From a virus, in the UHGV virus genome UHGV-0033085: DNA of 64,000 nt; one strand, written 5' to 3'. The stretch's first letter is position 1, and every line of letters begins with the position of its first letter. Of this stretch, positions 4,411 to 63,347 are shown in pieces. The translations under genes and the position numbers were made by a program. The notes below the pieces were generated by a model. The model saw only the letters and a list, made by a program, of their open reading frames with translations. It did not search any database and was not told the origin of the DNA.

Positions 4411-4419
4411 TCCTCTTTA

Positions 4420-4446
4420 AATGGCGCGTAAACCGCGCCATTTTCT
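4420..4446 (+). terminator. intrinsic terminator
   Basis: AATGGCGCG-taaac-CGCGCCATT hairpin followed by TTTC. Confidence 0.6.
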
Positions 4447-4454
4447 TATGCCCG

Positions 4455-4520
4455 ATAACAATTTGTTTTCTGCCTTTATCTTACTGCGATAATTACAACA
4501 ACAAGAAAACAACGTGTTTA
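4455..4520 (+). promoter_or_regulatory. promoter-operator module: ATAACAattTGTTTT (4455-4469), -10 GATAAT (4488-4493), AAAACAacgTGTTTA (4506-4520)
   Basis: Near-duplicate of the 945-1010 module, including the shared TTTGTTTTCTGCC string. Confidence 0.5.
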
Positions 4521-4537
4521 TTAGGTGGTGAAATAAT

Positions 4538-4690
4538 ATGGAATACATTGTTACTGTCGCTTCGTCAGATCGGGAGTCGTTACTTGAGGCTATCAGAAGC
4601 ATGGAAAACATCATCATGTCAGAGCAGGAGCTTAATGGTTATCTTGAGATGGATGATTTTTCTATCAAAATGGAGGTGAAGAATGACTGA
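4538..4690 (+). CDS. hypothetical small protein (50 aa)
   Basis: Not in ORF track (under 60 aa); AGGTGG RBS; stop overlaps next start (ATGA). Confidence 0.35.
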   Translation: MEYIVTVASSDRESLLEAIRSMENIIMSEQELNGYLEMDDFSIKMEVKND

Positions 4691-4964
4691 CTTCACCATT
4701 ACCCCTAAAGCACAAAATGTATTTCTTGAATCATGGCTGGACTTGCCGGAAACAGAACAGCAAGAAATGGATCATGTGGAATATGACGAGCAGGTAAGCA
4801 CGCGATTCTTCCACTTTGAGGGCTGCGTTTACGACATTGCCGACTTCATGCGAGATGACCGCTTCCCTGAATGGCACGCCAGTTATCCACTAAACGCCTT
4901 CGCCATGCTGATGATCCGTGTGGATGATTCAGGGGATACCATCGACATCGGTCTGCTCCACTAA
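4683..4964 (+). CDS. hypothetical protein
   Basis: ORF track; start overlaps upstream small ORF. Confidence 0.5.
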   Translation: MTDFTITPKAQNVFLESWLDLPETEQQEMDHVEYDEQVSTRFFHFEGCVYDIADFMRDDRFPEWHASYPLNAFAMLMIRVDDSGDTIDIGLLH

Positions 4965-4969
4965 AGAGT

Positions 4970-4993
4970 AAGGCCACCAATGCTGGTGGCCTT
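4970..4993 (+). terminator. conserved GC-rich hairpin AAGGCCACCA-atgc-TGGTGGCCTT (terminator-like, no U-run)
   Basis: Perfect 10-bp stem right after the stop codon; near-identical copy at 6039-6062. Confidence 0.4.
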
Positions 4994-5101: not shown

Positions 5102-6034
5102 ATGAAACCAGTATTTTTGGGACAAATTGACATTAGTGAATTGTTTTCAGTTAAAGATGGGTCCCAATATGACTGTGATTGCCTTGAACTTAATGGTCTT
5201 GAATATGAATACAGATTGGCTATTGTGAATGATGGTAAGAAGACATTTTCTGTCGAATGTTTTAAAAATACTTACTTTAAGCATGTGTTGAGAATAAGAC
5301 AGCGTGTGGAGATGTCAATTCGGGAAAACATCAAAAATAAATGTGAGTTTCTTGCGATTAAAAATGAAATAGATGCAATAAACTTTGTTACGTTCACTGA
5401 TAGTGGTCGATTGGCTATGCTGGAGCTATTTCATCTGATCGTTTCTAATAACAGTATAACAGAAGCCTTGATCAGTCTTTCAACTATAGTATCAAAAGAA
5501 AGAGAACACACTGGCGCTTTAATTGTAGAGAAGCTAGGTGGAATACTCGAGAAGATCAAAAATAAAGAGTTGATTATAGAATATGGCAAGGAAAGTAGAA
5601 AAAATAATTTACATTCAGCTTTTCGTTCCCCATATGTTGAGCGTTTAAATGGTTCGGCATCTTTTGTTAATTTAGAGTTTAATAGATTCTTTAGTTCTCT
5701 TTTTACAGAGTATGGAATTGTTATTGTGGAGGTAAATAATGAGAATGATGTGCCAAAAATCATAGTGCATTCGATGCCGGATATCCCTTTCAATGAGATT
5801 GAGAACAAACTGGAGATTTTAGACGATATAAATACAAAAAGCATGGAAGAACTCATAGAGTATCTGGCCGTAGATGCGGTAGCTATGGCTGATAATGATG
5901 TGTTTGGGGTTGGTGCACTGCATGAAGGCTATCTTGACGCCCTTGAACTTTACGGGACTGCTCGCTGGTTTCTGTCAGGATTAGTGGATGATGCGCCTTT
6001 ACTCATCAATACAGATTATTCTTATTCCAGTTGA
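5102..6034 (+). CDS. hypothetical protein (310 aa), AT-rich gene
   Basis: Long ORF with GAGG RBS; base composition clearly more AT-rich than flanks. Confidence 0.55.
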   Translation: MKPVFLGQIDISELFSVKDGSQYDCDCLELNGLEYEYRLAIVNDGKKTFSVECFKNTYFKHVLRIRQRVEMSIRENIKNKCEFLAIKNEIDAINFVTFTDSGRLAMLELFHLIVSNNSITEALISLSTIVSKEREHTGALIVEKLGGILEKIKNKELIIEYGKESRKNNLHSAFRSPYVERLNGSASFVNLEFNRFFSSLFTEYGIVIVEVNNENDVPKIIVHSMPDIPFNEIENKLEILDDINTKSMEELIEYLAVDAVAMADNDVFGVGALHEGYLDALELYGTARWFLSGLVDDAPLLINTDYSYSS

Positions 6035-46536: not shown

Positions 46537-47058
46537 TTATTCTTCGAACAATTTTTCGATAGATTTTGTAGGATAGAACAAAGAACGCTCGTTGTTACCA
46601 ACCAGCTGGATAAAGTCTAAACTTTTATAAAACGCCTTGGCTTTGTCATTTAACGCCTCAACGAAAAGTCCATGAATGCCTACAGCAAGAGATGCATTGT
46701 ACACAACGCGCATTGCATGTGTTACAAGCATTGAGCCAAATCCTTGACCTTGAAGGGACTTGTCCAAAGCCAGCCTACCCAAAGTAACACTTGGAACATT
46801 CCGATAAGGTACCTTCTTTTGCTGGCTTCTTGAAGGTAAGGACTCCTTTTCAAAGCAGCTACCTGACAAAGTGTAATACCCTAACACTTTTGGTCTGCCT
46901 TCTTTCGTGCAGAGCACATAAGCGCGAAGAATTTTTCCCTCATGCTGCCTTTTTAAGTGGTTGGTTAAAAAGGCATTTAGTGATTCTTCACCGCAATCAA
47001 AACCATTCAAATCATAATCTTTCTCTCCAGAGAAAATTTCTATCTTTATATTATCCAC
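46537..47058 (-). CDS. GNAT-family toxin (TacT-like)
   Basis: GNAT motifs; paired with DUF1778-like antitoxin. Confidence 0.8.
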   Translation of the reverse strand: MDNIKIEIFSGEKDYDLNGFDCGEESLNAFLTNHLKRQHEGKILRAYVLCTKEGRPKVLGYYTLSGSCFEKESLPSRSQQKKVPYRNVPSVTLGRLALDKSLQGQGFGSMLVTHAMRVVYNASLAVGIHGLFVEALNDKAKAFYKSLDFIQLVGNNERSLFYPTKSIEKLFEE

Positions 47059-54561: not shown

Positions 54562-55880
54562 AAAAGTTGATCGCACTTAAGCATAAGCTGGACGAAATGA
54601 AAGCTATGGGCACCAATGCAAAAAAAGAGGCATTGGCCAACATGGATGACTTTGAACAAAGCATGGTTTCATTGATGCTCAACCCTTTCATCCGTTTTGG
54701 GGTAAAGAAATACAAAGTGGCAGAGCCGCTTAGTGAGTCCATCCCAAGTGACGAAAAAGCCATTGATGTACTGAATAAGCTGGCCTCTCGCGAGCTAACG
54801 GGGAACGCAGCAATAGCAGCTGTTGAGTCTATCGTGGCGTCAATGTGCGCCGATGGGCAGGACGTGTTCCGTCGTTTCCTCTTAAAAGACCCGAAAGCTG
54901 GCGTTGGGATTAGCCTATGCAACAAGGTTTTTGAAAATCCCATTCCGAAATTCGAGGTGCAGCTGGCGTCACCGTATAAAGAAAAAGGCGACAAATACCC
55001 CTTCAAGCCAAATCCTAAAGCAAAATGGCCGATGATTGGCAGTCTTAAGCTCGATGGTTTGCGAGTAATTTGCGAGGTTATTGTTGACGAGGAAGAGGTT
55101 AACTTCCTTTCTCGTACTGGTAATCCAATCACGTCTCTCGATCACCTAAAGCCAGCCATGCTCGAATTAGGCAAACTTTCAGGCCACAAACACATCTTCT
55201 TCGATGGTGAAGGAACTGCCGGTTCATTTAACCAGTCCGTATCTGCATTGCGCAAAAAGAACGTGCAGGCAATTGGCGCTATTTATCATGTTTTCGACTT
55301 CTTCCTACCGGAATGGCGAGCACAGGCTAAATCCAAAGAGTATGCAAAGACAGGTATGAAGCTGAAAGAGCGCCTGGCTATGCTGGTGGCGTTGTTCAAA
55401 AACGATCGCAGTGAAGGCTACACACAAGACATTCACCTGCATCCGTTCTATATCATCCATAGCCACGAAGACTTCATCGAACGCTTCATGAAACGCCTGG
55501 ACGATAACGAAGAAGGGGAGATGGGCAAAGATCCGAACTCTGTTTACGAGTTTAAACGTACCCGCAGCTGGTGGAAGTTAAAAGACGAAGATTCAGAAGA
55601 TGGTGAAATTATCGACTTTGAGCCGGGCGACCCGGACTCTGGTTTTGCCAACACACTTGGAAAAATTGTTATTCGTCTTGAAAACGGCGTCATCGTTCGT
55701 GCGAGCGGCATTAAGCATAAATATCTGGATGAGATCTGGAACAACAAAGAGAAGTACCGTGGTCGTATTGTCGAGGTTCATTGTCACGAGAAAACACCGG
55801 ACGGCAGCTTACGCCACCCACGACTGAAATGGCCGCGTTGCTTACGCGATACAGAAGATCGAATCGGAGATAAAGAATGA
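54558..55880 (+). CDS. ATP-dependent DNA ligase
   Basis: Adenylation motif I KLDGLR in GSLKLDGLRVICEV. Confidence 0.8.
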   Translation: MKKLIALKHKLDEMKAMGTNAKKEALANMDDFEQSMVSLMLNPFIRFGVKKYKVAEPLSESIPSDEKAIDVLNKLASRELTGNAAIAAVESIVASMCADGQDVFRRFLLKDPKAGVGISLCNKVFENPIPKFEVQLASPYKEKGDKYPFKPNPKAKWPMIGSLKLDGLRVICEVIVDEEEVNFLSRTGNPITSLDHLKPAMLELGKLSGHKHIFFDGEGTAGSFNQSVSALRKKNVQAIGAIYHVFDFFLPEWRAQAKSKEYAKTGMKLKERLAMLVALFKNDRSEGYTQDIHLHPFYIIHSHEDFIERFMKRLDDNEEGEMGKDPNSVYEFKRTRSWWKLKDEDSEDGEIIDFEPGDPDSGFANTLGKIVIRLENGVIVRASGIKHKYLDEIWNNKEKYRGRIVEVHCHEKTPDGSLRHPRLKWPRCLRDTEDRIGDKE

Positions 55881-56056
55881 TGCTCGGCTGGATGATTGCA
55901 TTTTTAGCAGTTGGTTTTTTCATAGGTATTGTGGTGATGTCCAGTTGCATCAATGACTACATTAAAAGCGGTGTTATAGAAAGACGCGGTCGTATTTATC
56001 GCATTGTAGAAATAACCAACACCCTGAAGGAGATTAAGGATGATCGTATTAAGTAA
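55877..56056 (+). CDS. small single-TM membrane protein (59 aa)
   Basis: Not in ORF track; ATGA overlap with ligase stop; paralogous to 56252..56404. Confidence 0.4.
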   Translation: MMLGWMIAFLAVGFFIGIVVMSSCINDYIKSGVIERRGRIYRIVEITNTLKEIKDDRIK

Positions 56057-56255
56057 ACGGGAGAAGGAAACGCTTCATGAAATCAGTAAGTGGCCGGAGT
56101 TCCCTGAGTACTGGAAGCCTAAAACGCGAGCTAAGTTAGAGCGTTTAGGGTTGGTTGCAAACGTTTCTGAAACGTGGTGTTCGGCCAACTACCAGTTAAC
56201 TGATAAAGGGAAAGTATTGCTACAGCAATTAGTAGAATCAGGAGCGTTAAAATGA
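56040..56255 (+). CDS. hypothetical small protein
   Basis: ORF track; GGAG RBS; translationally coupled. Confidence 0.45.
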   Translation: MIVLSKREKETLHEISKWPEFPEYWKPKTRAKLERLGLVANVSETWCSANYQLTDKGKVLLQQLVESGALK

Positions 56256-56404
56256 TTCCATACATCTCATTAGCTTTTATGGGTGGCTTCCTTATCGGCT
56301 TCGGCATCTGTCGTGATTTAATTAAGCAGGAACTTAAAACCAAAACACTGTGCATCGGAAAGCGTGTGTATCGGGTAGTTCATGAAACAAAGGTGAAAAA
56401 ATGA
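56252..56404 (+). CDS. small single-TM membrane protein (50 aa)
   Basis: Not in ORF track; ATGA overlaps at both ends; shares the G(K/R)R(I/V)YR(I/V)V motif with 55877..56056. Confidence 0.4.
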   Translation: MIPYISLAFMGGFLIGFGICRDLIKQELKTKTLCIGKRVYRVVHETKVKK

Positions 56405-56691
56405 GCAATTTAACTTCTTGGGAATGGTGGTTGGCCACCTATTTCTTAGCGGCCGGAGTCGCATTCGCCTTTTACGTAGGTCAGTTAGTCGTAAAACTGT
56501 TGCTGATTAAATTTGCTAGTCATAAACGTATCGATGATGGTCTGTGGCGTCTTGGCACCCTGGTGGAAACTCGCTACGGGCAACTTAAGGAGAACGAAAC
56601 CATTACTATCCAAGCGAAACGATTCACTGCCACCATTACAAGAACACCTAGTCGTAGAGTGGCCTTGATCAAAAAAGTCACAACCGAATAA
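56401..56691 (+). CDS. membrane protein (N-terminal TM helix)
   Basis: ORF track; ATGA-coupled. Confidence 0.45.
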   Translation: MSNLTSWEWWLATYFLAAGVAFAFYVGQLVVKLLLIKFASHKRIDDGLWRLGTLVETRYGQLKENETITIQAKRFTATITRTPSRRVALIKKVTTE

Positions 56692-56700
56692 AAACATATT

Positions 56701-56722
56701 GATAAGTATTTACTTACTTATC
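56701..56722. promoter_or_regulatory. TAAGTA box, palindrome GATAAGTA-tttact-TACTTATC
   Basis: Perfect 8-bp arms at the start of the non-coding tRNA region. Confidence 0.4.
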
Positions 56723-56896
56723 TTTTGTGTATAAGATGACTTTGTTTTCGTTGAGACGCGACTGTTTGAACTTAAATACAAGTGCAAACGAAGAAGTCTA
56801 TCTGGCAGTAGCCTAATAAGCCAAACACCAGCGAGGTCAGTTTCCAGCCTCGTTACCGAAATGGGACACACTGAGCGAGTGTGATTGCAGAACGCA

Positions 56897-56920
56897 GGAG
56901 GGAACATTCATGTTCCCTCC
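56897..56920. repeat. perfect 24-bp palindrome GGAGGGAACATtcATGTTCCCTCC
   Basis: 11-bp perfect arms; contains SD-like AGGAGG plus ATG in both orientations. Confidence 0.7.
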
Positions 56921-57081
56921 GATGAAGTAACAGAATGGGCGGTTGGTATATTTTCAACTCCATATGACTCCCGGATTCTTAGCCACTGACCGCCCATCCT
57001 GTTACGTCATTTTGTTCAATTATGTCGTTTATACTGGGTTAAAAAGCGGCGACGTAGCCCGGCTGGTATGGTTAGCCAGCA

Positions 57082-57203
57082 CACAACGTTGAGGCCATTA
57101 CATTTTTATCAATTCTAAGGTTCTATTCACAGAGATACCGGCGAGCGTTGATATGTAACATGTTGGGCAAACATTCAATCGGAGTAGTGGCCTCAACGTT
57201 GTG
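57082..57203 (+). repeat. long stem-loop element A (CACAACGTTGAGGCC ... GGCCTCAACGTTGTG)
   Basis: 15-bp perfect inverted repeat around about 92 nt, upstream of tRNA-Asn. Confidence 0.6.
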
Positions 57204-57469
57204 AAGACAGGATTGTTGTGTAGGTTTAACCACTGTTGCCATTGGTGCCTGTTTTCACAACAAATGATTCCATACATCACATTGTATAAATTACAAAGTA
57301 GGTGCTGTCCTCAGAAACATCATCTACTTAAAGATTTTGCCTTCTACTATTGAGCGAAGTCGAAAGCGTCTGGCACTAACGAAAAGTGCAAGTAGCGGTG
57401 CGTTTCCTGGCAGAAACTAAACCGTCGCGATTGGCACTGTTGAGTAATAAATACTGGCAGTGCTGAATT

Positions 57470-57544
57470 GATGGTGTAGCTCAGCGGTAGAGCAGTTGGC
57501 TGTTAACCAACTGGTCGGTGGTTCGAATCCACCCACCATCGCCA
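57470..57544 (+). tRNA. tRNA-Asn (anticodon GTT)
   Basis: Cloverleaf folded by hand: 7-bp acceptor, GCTC/GAGC D-stem, GTTGG/CCAAC anticodon stem, loop CTGTTAA, TTCGAAT T-loop, encoded CCA. Confidence 0.85.
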
Positions 57545-57549
57545 ATTTA

Positions 57550-57636
57550 GGGGAGTTAGTCCGTAGAGGTAGCGGTGTAGACTGTAAATCTACTGTCATG
57601 GCGACTCGGGTGGTTCGACTCCATCACTCCCCACCA
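57550..57636 (+). tRNA. tRNA-Tyr (anticodon GTA), type II
   Basis: Acceptor GGGGAGT/ACTCCCC, anticodon stem GTAGA/TCTAC with loop CTGTAAA, long variable arm, TTCGACT T-loop, encoded CCA. Confidence 0.8.
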
Positions 57637-57640
57637 AATT

Positions 57641-57716
57641 GCCGGTTTAGCTCAGTTGGTAGAGCGCCTGCCTTGTAAGCAGGATGTCAGCGGTTCGAGT
57701 CCGTTAACCGGCACCA
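57641..57716 (+). tRNA. tRNA-Thr (anticodon TGT)
   Basis: Acceptor GCCGGTT/AACCGGC, GCTC/GAGC D-stem, anticodon stem CCTGC/GCAGG with loop CTTGTAA, TTCGAGT T-loop, CCA. Confidence 0.85.
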
Positions 57717-57717
57717 A

Positions 57718-57806
57718 CACAACAGGTAAGTGCATTGGGCGAATCGGCGATACTGACCCACAAGCCCGTAAATCGATAGAGTCAGACCAGTGCTCTTACC
57801 GTTGTG
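57718..57806 (+). repeat. long stem-loop element C (CACAACAGGTAAG ... CTTACCGTTGTG)
   Basis: 12-bp arms around about 64 nt, immediately after tRNA-Thr. Confidence 0.55.
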
Positions 57807-57857
57807 AGGAAGTGCAGCTCTTTGAGGCAACCAGAAGATAAGCATCTGGCTTCACAA

Positions 57858-57936
57858 CACAACGATAAGATCATTACGGTTAATCGTCGTTCATGTGCAC
57901 AATGACTGGTCGAAAGGTAGTGATCTTACCGTTGTG
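57858..57936 (+). repeat. long stem-loop element D (CACAACGATAAGA ... TCTTACCGTTGTG)
   Basis: 13-bp arms with one mismatch around about 53 nt. Confidence 0.55.
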
Positions 57937-58080
57937 GTGGATTCGCAGACTGATGCGATAGCTTTCTTGGATGTTAGGGAAATGCGGCCGCAAATCTTCC
58001 CTTTCGCGAGCGGTGATCGTCCGTAGTCCTAATTGGCTGCACCGTATGCCGGAGATTCAGTACCGGCCACCACAACGGCC

Positions 58081-58167
58081 GGAGAGTAGGGAGCATGGTG
58101 CTCAAGCGGTCTTGAAAACCGTCCCATTGCGCAAGCGATGATGGTTCGATTCCATTACTCTCCGCCA
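58081..58167 (+). tRNA. tRNA-Ser (anticodon TGA), type II
   Basis: Acceptor GGAGAGT/ACTCTCC, anticodon stem GCGGT/ACCGT with loop CTTGAAA, 17-nt variable arm, TTCGATT T-loop, discriminator G, CCA. Confidence 0.8.
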
Positions 58168-58169
58168 GA

Positions 58170-58247
58170 CACAGCGTTGAGCGGTTTGGCCTTTTAATCA
58201 CCCAGATTAAGACTCCGCTAACATAAACCAGACCGCTCAACGCTGTG
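58170..58247 (+). repeat. long stem-loop element B (CACAGCGTTGAGCGGT ... ACCGCTCAACGCTGTG)
   Basis: 16-bp perfect arms around a 46-nt loop, directly after tRNA-Ser. Confidence 0.6.
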
Positions 58248-58389
58248 ATAGACAATTACGGCAGACGTTCTTAACCATAGCTTGCTAACATCCTAGCAAC
58301 ACTTTTTTTCAGCGCAAAATTCAAAGGGGCTTCGGCCACTTTTTTTGCAACTGAAAGAGTCAAGTCTACGAACTTTGTAGGAAGAAATA

Positions 58390-58740
58390 ATGACCAGCAA
58401 AGAGAACACACCACTAAAAGTCACCCCTGAACACATTGAACAACTCATTCAAAGTGAACATTATTTCACTGCATATGATGCCAGCCACGGGGATAACTTC
58501 ATCTCTGTTTACAATTCAAAAACAGATATCGACAAAGGTCATGAGTCGTTAAAACTCTTAACGTTCTGCGTTATGGTTCTCAAAAATGGATATACCGTAA
58601 CGGGAAAATCTGCGTGCGTAAGACCAGAAATCTTCAATTTTGATGTTGGTCGCGAGTACGCTCGAAAAGATGCTATCGATCAAATCTGGCCCCTGGAAGG
58701 CTATCTCCTGAAGCAAAAGTGGCATGAGGCAAAGCAATGA
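58390..58740 (+). CDS. hypothetical phage protein (N4 gp49-like, tentative)
   Basis: ORF with GGAAG RBS; C-terminal ...IWPLEGYLLKQ block. Confidence 0.45.
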   Translation: MTSKENTPLKVTPEHIEQLIQSEHYFTAYDASHGDNFISVYNSKTDIDKGHESLKLLTFCVMVLKNGYTVTGKSACVRPEIFNFDVGREYARKDAIDQIWPLEGYLLKQKWHEAKQ

Positions 58741-58982
58741 CGATCACTATCTACGGATGAGATAACTGCTCATACTGCAAACGTGCGGTCGAGCTGGCGA
58801 AGCAACTAAAGGGACATGGCTACGGTGATTATGAGTACATCGACATCACCACTGCCGGTATCAACAAGGAAAAACTAAGTGAAATTGTTGGTAAACCGGT
58901 AGAGACTATCCCCCAAGTGCTGATCGATGGCCAACCGATTGGCGGATACACAGAACTGGCTGCATACGTCAGCACCCTCTGA
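58737..58982 (+). pseudogene. Grx1-like glutaredoxin interrupted by in-frame TGA at codon 8 (58758-58760)
   Basis: Translation MTITIYG*DNCSYCKRAVELAKQL...GKPVETIPQVLIDGQPIGGYTELAAYV has the glutaredoxin fold signature; the stop sits where Grx1 has the Arg of GRSGCPYC. Confidence 0.6.
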
Positions 58983-59061
58983 TTTTAACGGCTCACAGGA
59001 GCCGTTTTTATTCCCACCAAACTCACTCCCGTTTCCCTTAAAATTCAAAAAACAACGTCAA

Positions 59062-59094
59062 AATGATTCCATACCTACTATGTATGGAATCATT
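59062..59094. repeat. inverted repeat AATGATTCCATAC-ctactat-GTATGGAATCATT upstream of integrase
   Basis: Perfect 13-bp arms; left arm is one of three direct copies of ATGATTCCATAC (56252, 57264, 59063). Confidence 0.6.
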
Positions 59095-59192
59095 ACTGAA
59101 AATGAGTTACTTTTACTCTTGATCCTATAAGAATCTATGCCTAATATACTGTTTACTTATACAGTGCATCGGCGTAACTCGGTGATTGTCAT

Positions 59193-60296
59193 ATGAAAAA
59201 TAGCTTTGACAGAGCACGCGCTGCGGAGAACACCTCAAAAGAGGCGATTGAGTATCTCGAAAGAGCATCTCAAATGCAGGCCGTTATGATCTCCCAGGTC
59301 AGCAATGACATGAGATTCTCGGACGCATTCATGTTATTCACTCGCTTATCTCTGCTGATAACAAGACGTCGGCCAGAGATCGCTGTTCATTGTATTTTGA
59401 TACATGTTTTGCCGCACATTGCCGATGTAAAAGTAAGTGACATTAATAGGTTCATGGTGAACCAACTGGTCAACCCACTAATACTGGATGGCAAAATTGT
59501 TATGGGCCGCCGCGTTTTCTCTCTGATGAAGCAGTTCCTTAGCTGGTGCGCCTTCCAGGGGATGATAGACGTGTCACCGTTAAACGATATGTCACTTAAC
59601 AAAGTTGCCGGTGGCGCAAAGCCCACACCTCGCGAGCGGAAGCTGACCGACGCAGAGGTATGGGTGTTCTGGAATATATGGGACTACTTCAATGTGTGCG
59701 CTGGTACAAAATGGGCGGCCAGGCTGTGTCTTGTATCCGCAAGACGACCTGACGAAGTACTGCGTGCTAAAAAAAGTGAGTTCAATCTTAAGCGTGGGGT
59801 TTGGAATCAAGGCAAGAGGAACAAATCTGCCCGTGAGCATTCGCTGCCTTTAAGCACATTAATGCGCACATGTATTGAAGAGTTGTTCGAATACGGTAAA
59901 GGCAGCCAGTGGCTCGTGCCTTCGAATAAAAAAATCGGGAAAGACCTTCCTATGTCTAAAGTGGCAATAGCCCAGGCATTACGTCGTATTCTGGAACGAC
60001 CAGAACTGATGGAGCTTGAGCCATTTACACCCCGAGACTTGCGCCGTACTGCGCGTAGTTACTTCCCAGCATTAGACATAAGCCAGGAGGTATCACGCAA
60101 AATCATGAACCACAGTCTTGAGGGGATAGATCGAGTCTACGACCGGCACGATTATATGGACGAGATGCGAGACGCCTTAGAAAGTTTCTCGACGTACATC
60201 GCATCAATCGTAGAGCAACCGGATTTAGACGAAATTGACCACAAATTCAAGGGAGATCGTCTATCAACAGAGCTTATTCGTGTAAATTTTTCATAG
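59193..60296 (+). CDS. tyrosine recombinase / phage integrase
   Basis: Conserved LVSARRPDEV, TPRDLRRTA and VYDRHDYMDE blocks consistent with the R..H-x-x-R..Y catalytic signature. Confidence 0.8.
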   Translation: MKNSFDRARAAENTSKEAIEYLERASQMQAVMISQVSNDMRFSDAFMLFTRLSLLITRRRPEIAVHCILIHVLPHIADVKVSDINRFMVNQLVNPLILDGKIVMGRRVFSLMKQFLSWCAFQGMIDVSPLNDMSLNKVAGGAKPTPRERKLTDAEVWVFWNIWDYFNVCAGTKWAARLCLVSARRPDEVLRAKKSEFNLKRGVWNQGKRNKSAREHSLPLSTLMRTCIEELFEYGKGSQWLVPSNKKIGKDLPMSKVAIAQALRRILERPELMELEPFTPRDLRRTARSYFPALDISQEVSRKIMNHSLEGIDRVYDRHDYMDEMRDALESFSTYIASIVEQPDLDEIDHKFKGDRLSTELIRVNFS

Positions 60297-60677
60297 AGAC
60301 TTTATGGCCTCAACAACCTTTTGTGATGCGCCTTTCTCTTTACCGAATCGCTCGTTATATGCAGCAAGAACCTGTTTTTCGTCCTCGTTAAGAGGAGCGG
60401 TGCCTTCTTTGTATAAAAATGCTGCGAGTTCAGGTTGGCGTTCTTCCAGCACCATCATCATAAGACGACTTGGCTCAATACCCAGCGCCAGCGCCAACGG
60501 ACGAACCTTATCGATAGGCAAAGGAATTTTGCCACTTTTAATTAAAGAAAGGTTGTTGGCATTTTTATAACCAATAAGTCTGGCTATTTGGGCCTGACTC
60601 ATAGGTGAGGATTCAATCAGCCCTGCGATAAAAGCAGCATAGCGACTTTCTATAAATTCAATCTTGTTGTCAGACAT
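60291..60677 (-). CDS. XRE-family helix-turn-helix regulator
   Basis: HTH segment MSQAQIARLIGYKNANNLSLIKSGK; convergent with integrase. Confidence 0.7.
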   Translation of the reverse strand: MSDNKIEFIESRYAAFIAGLIESSPMSQAQIARLIGYKNANNLSLIKSGKIPLPIDKVRPLALALGIEPSRLMMMVLEERQPELAAFLYKEGTAPLNEDEKQVLAAYNERFGKEKGASQKVVEAIKSL

Positions 60678-60708
60678 TGTTACAACCTTTGCGCGTTCAA
60701 TTCTCTCT

Positions 60709-60722
60709 GGTAAGTGCTTACC
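60709..60722. promoter_or_regulatory. palindrome GGTAAGtgCTTACC upstream of the XRE regulator gene
   Basis: Perfect 6-bp arms 32 nt upstream of the regulator start; further GGTAAG / CTTACC copies follow in the AT-rich divergent region. Confidence 0.4.
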
Positions 60723-60927
60723 GATATTACATCAAAGGTTAGGGTTGTAAAGCTATTATCATTTTTTCGATAGGCACTTAAAAGACCGGTTAAAGGCCAT
60801 TGCACGGAGAAAAATTAGCCCAAAACAGGTAAGAAAATTAACTTGCATATGATATGAATGTATTCAGTATTGATATAAATTTTAGTAGTATTCCTTACCA
60901 TAGTATAAGTTAGAATGGATTGATTGA

Positions 60928-61140
60928 ATGAACACCACTATTTCCAGCCTAATCGCTCTTGAGATCGGACACGTACAGAAATTAGCTGATGAGTGTGTAG
61001 CTGACATCCTCACCGATCTACCGAATGAGCAGATTCAGGTTGGTGTGAATGACACAACTGGCTTTATATTCGAACTTAACAACAAACGCTTCACGCTTCT
61101 CAATATCGGCTCCGGGTCTTTAGCCGTCAGAATCTGTTAA
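60928..61140 (+). CDS. hypothetical small protein
   Basis: ORF track; no clear RBS. Confidence 0.3.
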   Translation: MNTTISSLIALEIGHVQKLADECVADILTDLPNEQIQVGVNDTTGFIFELNNKRFTLLNIGSGSLAVRIC

Positions 61141-61152
61141 CCCCTCTTCTCC

Positions 61153-61185
61153 CTGCGCGAATGGCTTAGTTCCCTGTTCGCGCAG
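61153..61185 (+). terminator. hairpin CTGCGCGAA-N15-TTCGCGCAG (possible terminator)
   Basis: 9-bp perfect stem, no U-run. Confidence 0.35.
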
Positions 61186-61206
61186 TGCTACATTAAACAC
61201 AGTAGT

Positions 61207-61221
61207 AAATAATTTGTTTTC
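61207..61221 (+). promoter_or_regulatory. degenerate operator AAATAAtttGTTTTC upstream of vWA gene
   Basis: Right half-site matches the AAAACA-N3-TGTTTT family; followed by AAGGA RBS. Confidence 0.3.
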
Positions 61222-61238
61222 ATAACAAAGGATTAGCC

Positions 61239-63347
61239 ATGTCTAAAAAACGTTCCATCAAAGAGGTTCAGGACTTCCGTGACAGTGTAAAACGAGTAGT
61301 CGCTCTCCTTTCAGGTAAAAACATCCCTGTTGCAGAACGAGGGGACGACGCTTATGTACGCTATAACGATGATGGAGAGCCAATTCTCGTAAACATCCCA
61401 TCAATCCCGGATAACGCAACACCGGCATTGATGAATGCTGTGCGCGGATTTCTCGATCATGAGGTTGCTCACATTTTGTTTACCGATATTCGTGTGTCCA
61501 ACAAAATGAGAGAAAAAGGACGCGTTCCTTCCTGGTCGCTATGGAATGCCTTAGAAGACGTGTTCATCGAGCGAAAAATGGGTCAGGTCTTTAACGGAAC
61601 AAGACGTAATCTGATGGCAACTCAGCGCCTTATAATCGAAAAAGTCTTTAAACCAAAGGCTTCAGAGGCTATTGCTTATTGTGGCAAAGATCAGCGCGCG
61701 CTTTTTCTAAACTTCTTTCTCTGTCCGGTTGTAAGAGCCTGGGATGGCCAAGCACCGTTCGTAGATTTCATGGATGAACATTGGCCTGTCATTGAGAAAC
61801 CAATTTCATTATTAAAAGAACATGGTATCGATGTGGCCGTGCGTAACATGTCTTGCACCGAGGATTGTGTAAAGGTGGCTGCGACCATAGCTAAGATCCT
61901 CAAAGACACTGAAAGTGAAAGCAAAGGTAAGGAGTCAGCTCCGGGAAAAACTTCCGATCCTTCAGACGCTGACCAGACGGATGCCTCTGGAGAAAACAAT
62001 GAAGACAACGAAGATCATGAGACACCCTCAGCGTTAGATAATCACAAATCTATCAAATCAGAATCACATAGTAAGTACAAACATGATAATAACGACAGTG
62101 ATGATTCAGATAATTCTGAATCATCAGAAACAATATTCGATGATACAGAAAATGATAAAGAGGTATCAGATTCTGATGCTTCTGATAACGCGGCGTCAGA
62201 ATCATTAACCGCTGACCACGAAAAAAGAAAAACGACAGAAGACGGCTCTTCAGATATCCCAACTCCGTCAAAAATGAGTCTGGAAGAGGCTTTAGAGGAG
62301 TTGGATAGCATGGAAGATGAAGTCGGAGGCATGACAGAAGATGCGCTATCCGAAACGATTAAAAGCGAGTTAACAGAAAGCTCGAAAAGCGAATACAGGC
62401 CATACAATCGCTCATACGACTTCATCGGCTCGATTGATCAGGCAGAAGCCCATATCAAACGGCTTATTAAAACATTCTCCGATATTGATTTGGGAGGATA
62501 TCCAATCAGCCGCTATCGCATCGTTCCTGAAGGCAACCAGCTCTTCGACAAATATATTGAAAAGCATCTTTCGTCAGGTGTTTCGTCGACGCTGGCAAAA
62601 GACCTGGAGCGAGCAATAGCAAGCAGAAACAGAGTTCAGTTTATACCGGGCCAGCGTCGGGGGCGCATTCATGGTTCTAGTATCTACAGATTAGCAATGA
62701 ATGATGCTCGCGTGTTTCGTAAAAAAGAAGAATCTAAAGCCGTTAACGCCTGTGTTCAACAAGTGATTGATTTATCAGGTTCAATGAGTGGTATAACGAT
62801 TAAACTGGCTCTTGCAAGTGCATATACCATCGCCGATGCCCTTGATCGAATAAATGTTCCCAACATTATCACCGGCTTCACTACATTTGGTAGTCATATG
62901 GCGGCAGGAGAACTTAAGGCTGTCAAGTATGAGTTCTCTCGCTTTGAATCTTTAATGCTACCTATCATCAAAAATTGGAATGAAAAGGTAAATTCTCGCG
63001 AAGTTCGCTCACGTATGGGGTGCGTAGGCTACACATTCCCACTTCTTAATAACGTGGATGGTGAAAGCATAGCCAGCCTTGCATCGTTATTTTCCGGTCG
63101 CTTGGAGGACAGGAAGATCATGCTTGTTCTGAGTGATGGCGCGCCGTGGGCTGTTGGGAGAGGTTTTGACGCTCATTTGCGTTCAGTTGCGAAGCAAATT
63201 GAAACGCAGACTGATATTGATTTGATGGCAATTGGCATCATGACTGACGCACCGGAGAGATTTTACTCAAATCATGCCCTGGTAACGAGCGTTGATAGTC
63301 TTGGTTCATCTGTAGTTACTGAACTATCTCGTATCATTTTAAAGTGA
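61239..63347 (+). CDS. von Willebrand factor A domain protein with acidic linker (CobT-like)
   Basis: MIDAS-like DLSGSMSG motif; long D/E/S-rich acidic segment. Confidence 0.7.
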   Translation: MSKKRSIKEVQDFRDSVKRVVALLSGKNIPVAERGDDAYVRYNDDGEPILVNIPSIPDNATPALMNAVRGFLDHEVAHILFTDIRVSNKMREKGRVPSWSLWNALEDVFIERKMGQVFNGTRRNLMATQRLIIEKVFKPKASEAIAYCGKDQRALFLNFFLCPVVRAWDGQAPFVDFMDEHWPVIEKPISLLKEHGIDVAVRNMSCTEDCVKVAATIAKILKDTESESKGKESAPGKTSDPSDADQTDASGENNEDNEDHETPSALDNHKSIKSESHSKYKHDNNDSDDSDNSESSETIFDDTENDKEVSDSDASDNAASESLTADHEKRKTTEDGSSDIPTPSKMSLEEALEELDSMEDEVGGMTEDALSETIKSELTESSKSEYRPYNRSYDFIGSIDQAEAHIKRLIKTFSDIDLGGYPISRYRIVPEGNQLFDKYIEKHLSSGVSSTLAKDLERAIASRNRVQFIPGQRRGRIHGSSIYRLAMNDARVFRKKEESKAVNACVQQVIDLSGSMSGITIKLALASAYTIADALDRINVPNIITGFTTFGSHMAAGELKAVKYEFSRFESLMLPIIKNWNEKVNSREVRSRMGCVGYTFPLLNNVDGESIASLASLFSGRLEDRKIMLVLSDGAPWAVGRGFDAHLRSVAKQIETQTDIDLMAIGIMTDAPERFYSNHALVTSVDSLGSSVVTELSRIILK

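Follow-up and report, generated by a model that had tools for sequence, protein, structure and literature searches.

A probable lox-like recombination site and conserved solitary half-sites around the integrase gene of an SSU5-type phage-plasmid

The DNA that we analyzed (the window; 64,000 nucleotides of virus genome UHGV-0033085) comes from a phage-plasmid of the SSU5/Cyrano type, which is maintained as a plasmid. It is 98% identical to phage Cyrano, whose complete genome is 108,379 bp. SSU5-type phage-plasmids are common in Enterobacterales, and the family takes in pHCM2 of Salmonella (S. Typhi) and pMT1 of Yersinia pestis. At the locus, a tyrosine recombinase ("integrase") gene is preceded by a perfect inverted repeat (IR), a segment with tRNAs and other cargo, and two solitary copies of the IR arm, here called half-sites A and B (table). 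The integrase module is present in 840 plasmid records and in 252 of the 5,426 complete E. coli genomes searched (~5%), where it sits at 255 places. All 255 are plasmid-borne, and a chromosomal form with attL and attR was found at none of them.

Features of the locus, with positions in the window
Feature	Position	Strand	Remarks
Half-site A (copy 1)	56252..56266	+	ATGATTCCATAC plus conserved extension ATC; exact match; start codon of 50-aa membrane ORF (MIPYI...)
50-aa hydrophobic ORF	56252-56404
Half-site B (copy 2)	57264..57278	+	ATGATTCCATACATC; non-coding, exact match
Variable cargo slot	57279..59038	+	4 tRNAs, hairpin units, Gp49-family gene, glutaredoxin gene, terminator
tRNAs	57470-58167		between copy 2 and IR
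Gp49-family gene	58390-58740		between copy 2 and IR, as is the glutaredoxin gene
Terminator	58987-59006		in cargo slot
A/T-rich element adjoining left arm	59039..59062	.	TAAAATTCAAAAAACAACGTCAAA; semi-conserved pattern, even with otherwise unrelated flanks
Inverted repeat	59062-59094		AATGATTCCATAC-CTACTAT-GTATGGAATCATT; perfect, 13-7-13; last two copies of the 12-mer
Left arm of IR	59063..59074	+	probable recombinase-binding element; exact match, conserved in relatives
Spacer CTACTAT	59075..59081	.	7 bp, asymmetric; probable crossover region; variants in relatives
Right arm of IR	59082..59093	-	probable recombinase-binding element; exact match, conserved in relatives
Putative integrase promoter with overlapping LexA box	59119..59166	+	read from sequence
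Putative -35, TTGATC	59119-59124	+	17-nt spacer to -10; promoter-scan score under tool threshold
Putative -10, TAATAT	59142-59147	+
LexA box	59147-59166	+	TACTGTTTACTTATACAGTG; overlaps putative integrase promoter
Tyrosine recombinase ("integrase")	59193..60296	+	367 aa; Pfam PF00589, E 4.9e-9
Decayed internal half-site	59799..59810	-	TTGATTCCAAAC; 2 mismatches; inside integrase gene; degenerate form only here

The 12-mer ATGATTCCATAC occurs exactly four times in the window, at 56252-56263 (+), 57264-57275 (+), 59063-59074 (+) and 59082-59093 (-), while none of 100 dinucleotide-preserving shuffles contained a match. Allowing two mismatches gave seven further matches in the window against 5.5 expected, which is chance level. 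The complete Cyrano genome has only five copies of the 11-mer core, and a 9.2-kb stretch that surrounds the integrase contains them all. The fifth is inverted and lies within the DNA polymerase III alpha gene, ~6 kb past the IR; the equivalent position in our element is just beyond the window end. These searches confirmed the copies at 56252, 57264 and 59063 and the reverse complement described in the original prediction, and showed that the 12-mer is not frequent elsewhere. Copy 1 is, as had been proposed, the ATG of a small membrane-protein gene. The AAA said to precede each copy is replaced by CAA before copy 2.

The IR ends 98 nt before the integrase ATG at 59193, close to the ~100 bp predicted. 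Its perfect 13-bp arms (59062-59074 and 59082-59094) and asymmetric 7-bp spacer match the anatomy of a recombinase core site, with two inverted arms of ~11-14 bp around an asymmetric center of 6-8 bp. The AlphaFold model of the integrase (pLDDT 86) has an all-helical N-terminal half (residues 1-125), and its best fold matches are lambda Int 75-356, Tn1549 Int, Xer, IntI, and Cre. R185, K211, R284, H307, and Y316 are invariant or nearly so in 45 homologues and, judged by motif position, are probably the catalytic residues; with the Pfam match and the fold, they suggest that the site has a cognate tyrosine recombinase whose active site is intact. The protein is a derivative of the P4-type integrases. 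Neither a Pfam search nor the AlphaFold model revealed an arm-binding domain (PF13356 or other), while relatives at 26-34% identity do carry PF13356. Because this domain is lacking and the element was never chromosomal, we read the IR as a lox/dif-like core site.

The LexA box at the integrase promoter is the only TACTGT-N8-ACAG in the window (0.05 expected); the Cyrano genome has just one strong LexA box besides it. CTGT-N8-ACAG is kept at this position in most SSU5-type lineages and is absent at the integrase in the 44-52% and 60% clades (clades are designated by integrase identity).

Comparison of relatives revealed that the IR and the integrase gene occur together. Every intact close homologue examined has an IR with 12-bp arms and a 7-bp spacer 40-105 bp upstream, with one exception that carries an intervening insertion. 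The IR is present, 83-100 bp before the ATG, in all 15 loci reached via integrase or DNA homology; at one of them, ~1.9 kb of inserted DNA separates it from the gene. Retrieval by integrase protein alone gave 71 loci, 68 with the exact IR; the remaining three are a symmetric variant, a truncated gene, and an unrelated 27% match. In each of the 114 viral contigs that contain the IR pattern, there is one IR, and an integrase gene adjoins it in all cases in which the stored DNA extends far enough. One IR of the second arm class has no integrase gene within 10.9 kb.

The arms also vary with the integrase. They are ATGATTCCATAC in the 79-100% clade, GTGATTCCATAC/GTATGGAATCAC in the 57-59% clade (the host genus Klebsiella is common to this and the 82% clade), TTGATTCCATAC/GTATGGAATCAA in one 56% member, and RTGACTCCAGAC/GTCTGGAGTCAY in the 44-52% clade. 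Each arm change is symmetric, and a 7-bp spacer was present throughout the ~200 loci, across all four arm classes. Thus, the arm classes follow the integrase clades, as for a site specificity that co-evolves with its recombinase. Between constant arms, the spacer has at least 15 variants, which include four reverse-complement pairs. Such flips are no proof of recombinase activity, since template switching at palindromes can yield them. To the left of the IR, position frequencies from 50 left-flank classes gave the pattern cAGAwTTyAAAAAA..cGcCyyTwA at -24 to -1, which may be an accessory or bending element.

The IR and integrase were also found together on a 106-kb non-phage plasmid of Erwinia and a 437-kb contig of Pantoea, with no HTH repressor, cobT, or dnaE neighbors beside them. 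Since the IR accompanies the integrase on plasmids without a phage repressor (loci L136 and L137), it is unlikely to be an operator of the adjacent HTH phage repressor. The intergenic region of that repressor contains another palindrome, GGTAAGTGCTTACC, and no 12-mer, and the IR lies upstream of the predicted -35. The original prediction had offered repeated binding sites as one explanation of the copies. Core-site anatomy, co-occurrence with the integrase, and co-variation of the arms fit this idea. Of its specific versions, an arm-type site does not hold for an integrase without an arm-binding domain, and a phage-repressor operator is unlikely for an IR that occurs on repressor-free plasmids.

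The solitary half-sites are conserved in place. Copies 1 and 2 share the longer match AATGATTCCATACATCnCATT, and the extended consensus of solitary half-sites across the family is RTGATTCCATACATC. In relatives found independently of the motif, the core of half-site A is exact in 31 of the 33 loci located via the upstream 71-aa gene, whose TGA it overlaps here, and the core of half-site B in 37 of the 38 located via tRNA-Asn. The two A exceptions belong to a 55-57% group in which the peptide IPY is kept and the DNA changed synonymously. Because MIPY is kept while the DNA of this group changes, part of the conservation of A may act on the protein. Half-site B comes immediately after a hairpin that ends in CACAAC. 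It lies 206 bp before tRNA-Asn in the window and always 168-207 bp before it in relatives; its flanks differ between lineages, and the flanks of both A and B are conserved within lineages. In the polymerase gene, TGT ATG GAA TCA TT is without synonymous change in 32 of 36 loci, likewise found without use of the motif, while neighboring codons vary. Since the same positions are kept across lineages with diverged flanks, we conclude that A and B are under selection and not decaying. At the internal position in the integrase gene, most relatives outside the E. coli type have GATGTATGGAATCA(A/G).

In sequence, the solitary copies equal the core arms, and their distances from the IR are 1.8 kb, 2.8 kb, and ~6 kb. 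In the 58% clade, the solitary copy begins with G, as do the IR arms of that clade. As the integrase has no arm-binding domain and the copies match the core arms at distances of 1.8-6 kb, the IR is a core-type rather than an arm-type site. All point towards the IR: two rightward, then the IR, then one or two leftward. The 44-52% clade has no solitary half-sites within 8 kb on either side. Because this clade lacks both half-sites and LexA box, and the 60% clade lacks the LexA box, neither feature is intrinsic to the system.

The prediction that the copies bracket a variable segment was borne out. The distance from B to the IR ranges from 1,192 to 6,253 bp in 27 non-redundant loci, and from 1,753 to 5,001 bp even among integrases at least 99% identical, while copies 1 and 2 are 992-1,039 bp apart in 24 of the 27. 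Slot content differs between relatives at 98-99%, and the glutaredoxin gene in the window carries an internal stop. This variability, together with the homology of distant relatives, which begins at the left edge of the IR, could suggest that the copies are scars of modular insertions, left by short-homology recombination, as the original prediction held, or by cassettes that entered at the IR and left hybrid half-sites in integron fashion. Successive IR insertions with one-armed partner sites would leave the arrangement seen, and the integrase is LexA-controlled, like integron integrases. However, A and B keep their positions across lineages with diverged flanks, and the copy to the right of the IR is within the reading frame of the polymerase. 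Where close relatives differ by indels, the boundaries are at tRNA/hairpin units, the Gp49 gene, and the 3' end of the glutaredoxin gene, not on A or B, and we found no extra half-sites or other repeated site flanking individual cargo genes. We therefore consider insertion scars very unlikely and reject neutral ones for A and B.

Action at the RNA level seems to us very improbable. In this reading, the small-ORF mRNA and the leader of the tRNA operon, both containing AAUGAUUCCAUACAUC, would base-pair with polymerase transcripts at GAUGUAUGGAAUCAUU, and in other lineages with the integrase mRNA, and thereby regulate them. On the transcript sense strands, A/B and the polymerase-gene copy are indeed 16-nt perfect complements, and B lies within the structured non-coding leader of the tRNA operon. 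RNA reads cover the tRNA region in a lysogen, in which CYRAN_40, overlapping the tRNAs, has RNA 15x above background (PMC9928086). Yet pairing does not account for the recurrence of this sequence as the two arms of an IR that accompanies the integrase even on unrelated plasmids, the pairing site would be deep within a coding region, and no Rfam family or other sRNA evidence was found.

More serious, but in our view still unlikely, is that the IR and solitary copies are purely regulatory operators with no strand exchange at the IR. The regulator would be the integrase, acting as a transcription factor, or another element-encoded protein, with the integrase gene, tRNA operon, and replication genes as targets. 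Single sites that are dispersed and oriented are more in keeping with a regulator than with a recombination site, the spacing between half-site B and tRNA-Asn is fixed, and an autoregulatory operator bound by an integrase dimer would give the same constant arms, free spacer, and co-variation. About 25 bp separate the IR from the putative -35 downstream of it; in the 60% clade, the IR is just 44 bp from the integrase ATG and therefore must overlap the promoter, whereas in the E. coli type it overlaps neither the predicted -35 nor the -10. Recombinase-fold phage repressors that bind dispersed repeated sites exist, such as SPbeta MrpR/YopR and phi3T SroF, and SroF is among the fold matches of the integrase. 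The integrase resembles them in its tyrosine-recombinase fold and in a motif repeated in the phage genome, but there are only three to four solitary sites, all near the gene. Moreover, the catalytic-type residues that it keeps, unlike these repressors, are retained across the 45 homologues, which argues for an active enzyme that would need a site. Arms of 12 bp around a 7-bp spacer are canonical core-site geometry, no other candidate recombination site was seen beside the gene, and the 44-52% clade, non-phage plasmids included, has the IR only, with no dispersed sites. As the integrase gene is LexA-repressed, the protein is not a lysogeny-maintenance repressor.

Several characterized systems come close to the module. 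Cre/loxP-type sites have two inverted ~13-bp arms around a short asymmetric spacer, which in loxP is 8 bp. Like Cre/loxP of P1 and Dre/rox of D6, the module pairs a plasmid-prophage tyrosine recombinase with a simple nearby site, with one site per replicon and no arm-binding domain. It differs from Cre/loxP in its 7-bp spacer, P4-type integrase derivative, LexA-controlled promoter, and conserved distant half-sites. The integrase has no detectable sequence relationship to Cre and no PDB sequence match, and Cre is only ~38th among the fold matches. In P1, the role of Cre/loxP is multimer resolution (PMC7969092). The Xer/dif systems (XerCD/dif, cer; XerH/difH) share ~11-bp inverted arms, a 6-8-bp center, and a place for Xer among the fold matches, and their function, dimer resolution of circular replicons, is the one that we propose for the IR. 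Unlike in Xer/dif, the recombinase is encoded by the element itself, right beside the site, and the perfectly symmetric arms imply a single protein. No sign of an FtsK or PepA/ArgR-type control mechanism was seen at the IR.

Lambda Int 75-356 is the best structural match for the core-binding and catalytic parts (TM 0.57-0.75), and lambda attP also has a 7-bp overlap and repeats that point in opposite directions on the two sides of the core. Unlike lambda Int, the integrase has no N-terminal arm-binding domain, and no integrated form was found in the E. coli set. Lambda-type arm sites were rejected, as the solitary copies do not differ from the core arms in sequence and are kilobases away, not within ~150-250 bp of the core. 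Integron integrase promoters carry a LexA box, and integron IntI/attI likewise combines an integrase without an arm-binding domain, variable cargo abutting the site, and extra direct-repeat integrase sites near the IntI core. Here, however, the cargo precedes the integrase gene and has its orientation, the extra sites lie at kilobase distances, and IntI is only a mid-ranking fold match. We rejected an integron platform, as there are no attC-bounded cassettes and the locus shares with it only the LexA box and cargo beside the site. In the shufflon of R64, the tyrosine recombinase Rci acts on sfx sites, each with a 7-bp spacer and a single conserved arm of 12 bp that the solitary copies resemble. 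Unlike at sfx, the 7 bp beside the solitary arms do not match the IR spacer, and in ~200 loci the intervening segments were never seen inverted.

Together, these data indicate that the IR is most likely the integrase's own lox-like recombination site and that copies 1 and 2 are conserved single half-sites, not insertion scars. Most likely, the module adds one more case to a known kind of system and has a few unusual features besides. We infer that the integrase binds the IR and the half-sites and exchanges strands at the IR: one monomer would occupy each 12-13-bp arm, and the strands would be exchanged over the asymmetric spacer of 7 bp, in the manner of loxP, FRT, or dif. Since there is one site per replicon and the element was never found integrated, the most likely purpose is conversion of plasmid multimers to monomers; circularization of incoming phage DNA may be a further job. 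The LexA box would tie integrase expression to the SOS response; a housekeeping resolution system would not be expected to be under LexA repression. The solitary copies at 56252 and 57264 and the inverted polymerase-gene copy could be further integrase-binding sites, maintained by selection in the SSU5 lineage for a regulatory or looping role. Taken as a whole, this explanation (a lox-like core site, multimer resolution, and half-sites that bind the integrase) seems to us reasonably likely.

A dual-function integrase is possible, if rather doubtful. At the IR, the protein would be an active recombinase of lox-like type; after release from LexA repression, it would also serve as a site-specific DNA-binding regulator or architectural protein on the conserved half-sites, coupling the SOS response to phage-plasmid replication or gene expression. 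The half-sites concerned lie at the start of the membrane-protein gene, before the tRNA operon, inside the polymerase gene, and, in other lineages, in the integrase gene itself. We know of no role for single half-sites kilobases away in simple tyrosine-recombinase systems.

In the literature searched, no site is assigned to an SSU5-type tyrosine recombinase, and the motif is absent. If the IR is the integrase site, it explains the monomeric state of these large, low-copy replicons and marks the fixed right edge of a cargo hotspot with toxin-antitoxin, immunity, and defence-like genes. A compact site of 31 bp would then be available in two or more natural specificities (arms ATGATTCCATAC and GTGACTCCAGAC) and with many naturally occurring spacers, and these arm classes could be orthogonal tools alongside Cre/lox. 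To our knowledge, neither the LexA box nor the selected half-sites inside coding genes have a precedent in simple recombinase systems; they may point to a regulatory link between DNA damage, recombination, and phage-plasmid replication.

The 12-mer repeats and the inverted repeat (IR) beside the integrase, a tyrosine recombinase gene, proved real, with exact copies at the positions tabulated here. The 12-mer had zero matches in 100 dinucleotide-preserving shuffles of the window, and allowing up to two mismatches added seven matches, which is chance level (5.5 expected). An exact-match search of the whole Cyrano genome revealed that the core is not scattered across this complete replicon, as there are only five exact copies, all inside 9.2 kb. 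The shuffles, together with confinement to 9.2 kb of the 108-kb genome, rule out a chance origin. The sole slip in the original prediction was that AAA precedes each copy, since copy 2 has CAA instead. The copies do bracket the tRNAs, stem-loops, and gp49-like and glutaredoxin genes, as predicted: four tRNAs, long hairpin units, a Gp49-family gene (Pfam E 3e-29), and a glutaredoxin gene lie between copy 2 and the IR.

Features of the repeat region and its surroundings (window coordinates)
Feature	Position	Strand	Sequence or remark
Copy 1 (half-site A)	56252	+	ATGATTCCATAC; start codon of a 50-aa hydrophobic ORF, overlaps stop of upstream 71-aa ORF
Hairpin units	56922-57010, 57082-57203, 57198-57261, 57726-57806, 57855-57939, 58170-58247		14-23-bp stems, typically ending CACAACG...CGTTGTG
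Copy 2 (half-site B)	57264	+	ATGATTCCATAC; non-coding
tRNA	58080-58167		Ser(TGA) by ARAGORN
Glutaredoxin gene	58737-58982		in-frame TGA at codon 8 (58758-58760)
IR	59062-59094		AATGATTCCATAC-CTACTAT-GTATGGAATCATT; copies 3 and 4
Copy 3	59063	+	ATGATTCCATAC
Copy 4	59082	-	ATGATTCCATAC
Putative integrase promoter	59119-59124, 59142-59147		TTGATC, 17-nt spacer, TAATAT; between IR and ATG
LexA box	59147-59166		TACTGTTTACTTATACAGTG; overlaps putative -10
Integrase gene	59193-60296	+	start 98 nt downstream of IR
Integrase-internal copy	59799-59810		decayed, two mismatches
Repressor intergenic region	60678-60927		no 12-mer
Palindrome and two half-motifs	60709-60722, 60828-60833, 60894-60899		GGTAAGTGCTTACC; GGTAAG/CTTACC
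Repressor promoter	60751-60724	-	sigma-70-like match

The region shares 98% identity with Escherichia phage Cyrano (OV696614) and 'phage CMS-2020a' plasmids and, over part of its length, ~77% with Salmonella phage SSU5. Cyrano is an SSU5-like phage-plasmid of E. coli LF82, where each cell has ~5.5 copies and ciprofloxacin induces it 39-fold (PMC9928086). Plasmid records with DNA similar to 59000-60300 (IR plus integrase) number 840 and come from Klebsiella, Escherichia, Enterobacter, Yersinia (pMT1 type), Salmonella (pHCM2 type), and other genera, and large contigs with close integrase homologues showed the same plasmid neighbourhood. Of 5,426 complete E. coli genomes, 252 have the module, and its 255 places are all on plasmids, none being chromosomal. 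The absence of chromosomal copies rules out, for E. coli, that the IR is an attP for chromosomal integration.

The IR is tightly paired with the integrase. At 15 loci found through integrase or DNA homology, covering E. coli, Yersinia, Kluyvera, Buttiauxella, Salmonella, Enterobacter, and Klebsiella, it has 12-bp arms and a 7-bp spacer and lies 83-100 bp 5′ of the integrase ATG; at one of them, a ~1.9-kb insertion parts the two. This insert, on K. pneumoniae plasmid NZ_CP131909.1 (locus L014, 964-3002), lies between the integrase and both the IR and the first part of the promoter region; it has no listed gene and is possibly an insertion sequence. Scanning viral contigs for the pattern gave 114 with an IR, exactly one each; this design fixes the arms by construction and makes arm invariance in this set circular. 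An integrase homologue adjoins the IR wherever the stored DNA extends far enough. Because of this circularity, checks were repeated with loci retrieved by protein or neighbouring gene. The exact IR was present in 68 of 71 loci retrieved by protein alone, the exceptions being a symmetric variant (56% integrase identity; TTGATTCCATAC-TTATATA-GTATGGAATCAA), a truncated gene, and an unrelated 27% match.

We considered whether the IR could be an operator of the adjacent HTH repressor. An Erwinia 106-kb plasmid and a Pantoea 437-kb contig, from the clade with 44-52% integrase identity, are not phage-plasmids; metabolic or H-NS genes surround their IR and integrase, and no HTH repressor, cobT, or polymerase gene lies near the IR. 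Since these elements keep the IR and integrase without the repressor, the IR travels with the recombinase gene and not with the phage immunity region, ruling out the operator reading. The repressor's own control region also has a different palindrome. The HTH repressor gene and the rightward operon flank this divergent control region, and the palindrome and two further half-motifs in it are likely the repressor's operators.

The IR arms co-vary with integrase clade, always symmetrically. Left and right arms are ATGATTCCATAC and GTATGGAATCAT at 79-100% integrase identity, GTGATTCCATAC and GTATGGAATCAC at 57-59%, TTGATTCCATAC and GTATGGAATCAA in the one member at 56%, and RTGACTCCAGAC and GTCTGGAGTCAY at 44-52%. 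In the last clade (Xenorhabdus, Providencia, Erwinia, Pantoea, and eight viral contigs), each arm has changes at two positions and the 7-bp spacer length persists. Plasmids of K. oxytoca and K. quasipneumoniae make up the 57-59% clade, which has its host genus in common with the 82% clade (K. pneumoniae). That arms differ between two elements of one genus argues against a host factor and for an element-encoded arm-binding protein. A host-factor site was also rejected on comparison with the consensus sequences for IHF, CRP, ArgR, and XerCD, which gave no convincing match. Locus L216 has an orphan IR of the second arm class at 5270-5300, GTGACTCCAGAC-CTCGTGA-GTCTGGAGTCAC, and its 10.9 kb of stored DNA contain no integrase homologue; a second site, a target site, and a remnant are all conceivable.

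At least 15 forms of the 7-bp spacer occur between the constant arms. The ATGATTCCATAC family and its close variants have CTACTAT, CTATTAA, TTGGTAG, TTGTAAG, TCTTTAG, TCCTTAG, TTCTTAG, CTATAAA, TATGTAA, CTATAGA, and TTATATA, and the second arm class has further forms. Four pairs are reverse complements relative to the integrase gene: CTATTAA/TTAATAG (in both arm classes), CTATAGA/TCTATAG, TTATATA/TATATAA, and TAATTAC/GTAATTA. As the arms are symmetric, site direction is set by the spacer alone. Spacer orientation would be neutral for dimer resolution, which fits the survival of both orientations. Spacer flips could also arise by template switching at palindromes and are no proof of recombinase action.

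The integrase has the features of a simple recombinase. Pfam searches detected the catalytic domain PF00589, a weak central-domain match, and no arm-binding domain; homologues at 26-34% identity are P4-type integrases with PF13356. In an alignment of 45 homologues, R185, R284, and Y316 were invariant and K211 and H307 nearly so, positions that would correspond to the R-K-R-H-Y catalytic set. In the AlphaFold model (mean pLDDT 86, pTM 0.77), the N-terminal half consists of helices only, and a beta-sheet arm-binding module is lacking. PDB searches gave no sequence match; the best fold matches were lambda Int residues 75-356 on a core site, Tn1549 Int, Xer proteins, and IntI, with Cre lower, and the recombinase-fold repressor SroF of phage phi3T was also among the matches. 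The earlier suggestion that the repeats are binding sites stood in that the sites are linked to the integrase, and fell in that they are neither arm-type sites nor the repressor's operator.

The best-supported explanation is that the IR is a lox/dif-like site at which the integrase would resolve plasmid multimers. We infer binding and recombination from the core-site geometry and the apparently active, simple two-domain recombinase, from the single site per replicon and the co-variation of site and enzyme, and from the occurrence on differing plasmid kinds together with the complete absence of integrated forms. The proposed role is that of Cre, which resolves P1 multimers (PMC7969092). Tyrosine recombinases have been described as persistent genes in the SSU5 supergroup (PMC7969092). 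The papers found on Cyrano and phage-plasmids mention the integrase or these recombinases and name no recombination site, and a full-text search with the 11-mer and its complement yielded nothing but unrelated primers. On balance, we favor the view that the IR and integrase are a previously uncharacterised member of the simple tyrosine-recombinase-plus-core-site kind.

Both left-hand solitary copies recur across relatives while their flanks have diverged, with the extended consensus RTGATTCCATACATC. With retrieval independent of the motif, the core was found 3′ of the 71-aa gene in 31 of 33 loci and 168-207 bp 5′ of tRNA-Asn in 37 of 38. The two exceptions at the 71-aa gene, from the 55-57% group, have TTGATCCCATATC, in which the changes are synonymous and the peptide IPY is kept; half-site A may owe its conservation in part to the encoded peptide. 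A third solitary copy is inverted and falls within the DNA polymerase III alpha gene, at a distance of 6.05-6.34 kb downstream from the IR. Its Cyrano core is at 47010-47020, corresponding to ~65.1 kb in window coordinates, just past the window end. This copy reads TGT ATG GAA TCA TT (C-M-E-S-L) in 32 of 36 protein-located loci, with zero synonymous change while the surrounding codons vary freely; it is missing in the most distant groups. In Cyrano, this fifth copy spans 47006-47021 as GATGTATGGAATCATT (codons R-C-M-E-S-L). Many non-E. coli lineages have a further inverted copy within the integrase gene, GATGTATGGAATCA followed by A or G.

Every solitary copy in Cyrano is directed towards the IR, and across ~200 loci, left-hand copies are all + and right-hand copies all - relative to the integrase, with no inversions between the IR and half-sites. 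No second arm was found beside the solitary copies at 7-8-bp spacing beyond chance. In the 58% clade, the solitary copy starts with G, as do that clade's IR arms. In the 44-52% clade, the 8 kb to the left and to the right of the IR contain no solitary copies, so these copies were added in the SSU5 lineage. Most economically, they would be bound by the protein that binds the IR arms, and they might serve in regulation, as roadblocks, or in looping to an IR-bound dimer.

The LexA box is the window's only TACTGT-N8-ACAG (0.05 expected). The E. coli, Klebsiella, Enterobacter, and Salmonella/Yersinia types and the 58% clade retain CTGT-N8-ACAG here, and the 60% and 44-52% clades lack it. Cyrano has only one other strong LexA box, 5′ of an S24-peptidase-like gene (Cyrano 89275). 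A sigma-70 scan did not call the integrase promoter, which rests on a weaker 8-of-12 match and the LexA box; the repressor promoter was the sole match in 55800-61300 (8.4 expected from shuffles). From these motifs, DNA damage, a signal that also induces Cyrano (PMC9928086), is predicted to derepress the integrase of SSU5-type elements. LexA control is unexpected for a housekeeping resolvase, which is our main reason for keeping open a broader role for the integrase. We know of no precedent for this control or for selected distant half-sites, some in coding genes.

The copies bracket a segment that varies among relatives. In 27 non-redundant loci, copy 2 and the IR are 1,192-6,253 bp apart (1,753-5,001 bp even where integrases are at least 99% identical), and copies 1 and 2 are separated by 992-1,039 bp in 24 of the 27. 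Cyrano is without 57546-58081 and has an 885-bp insert with CYRAN_43 between 58954 and 59044. CP053388 is without one hairpin unit (57731-57854), has an AT-rich reverse-strand gene in place of the Gp49 gene, and has a YafO toxin module before the IR. None of these indel boundaries is at copy 1 or 2. As the copies are conserved at syntenic positions while flanks diverge, the proposal that they are recombination scars did not hold. At the right edge, alignments of distant relatives begin at 59061-59063, and 91 distinct IR neighbourhoods have 50 left-flank classes (<80% identity) with the same IR throughout. Even unrelated left flanks have in common a weak A/T-rich pattern from -24 to -1; therefore, the fixed unit begins ~25 bp left of the arm. 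The segment resembles an ordinary cargo hotspot with conserved functional DNA at its borders, not a cassette array.

CYRAN_43 (4419-4973 of Cyrano locus L001) is directly left of the Cyrano IR on the opposite strand, in a slot that has no gene in the window. In the lysogen, it is reported to exceed every other Cyrano gene in expression, at 723x background (PMC9928086). The hairpin units, interspersed among the tRNA genes, differ in presence between 98-99% identical relatives, and the deletions end at the CACAAC motif. The units have no Rfam match and may be stable RNAs or tRNA-operon processing elements. As an explanation of the repeats, a known RNA family was rejected, since Rfam yielded only tRNAs and a sub-threshold tmRNA-like match. 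The serine tRNA scored 46.6 bits with the Rfam tRNA-Sec model (threshold 47), which probably reflects only its long variable arm, the anticodon being that of a serine tRNA. The in-frame TGA of the glutaredoxin gene is CGA (Arg) in Cyrano and CP053388, making the window's gene either a pseudogene or the product of a sequencing error.
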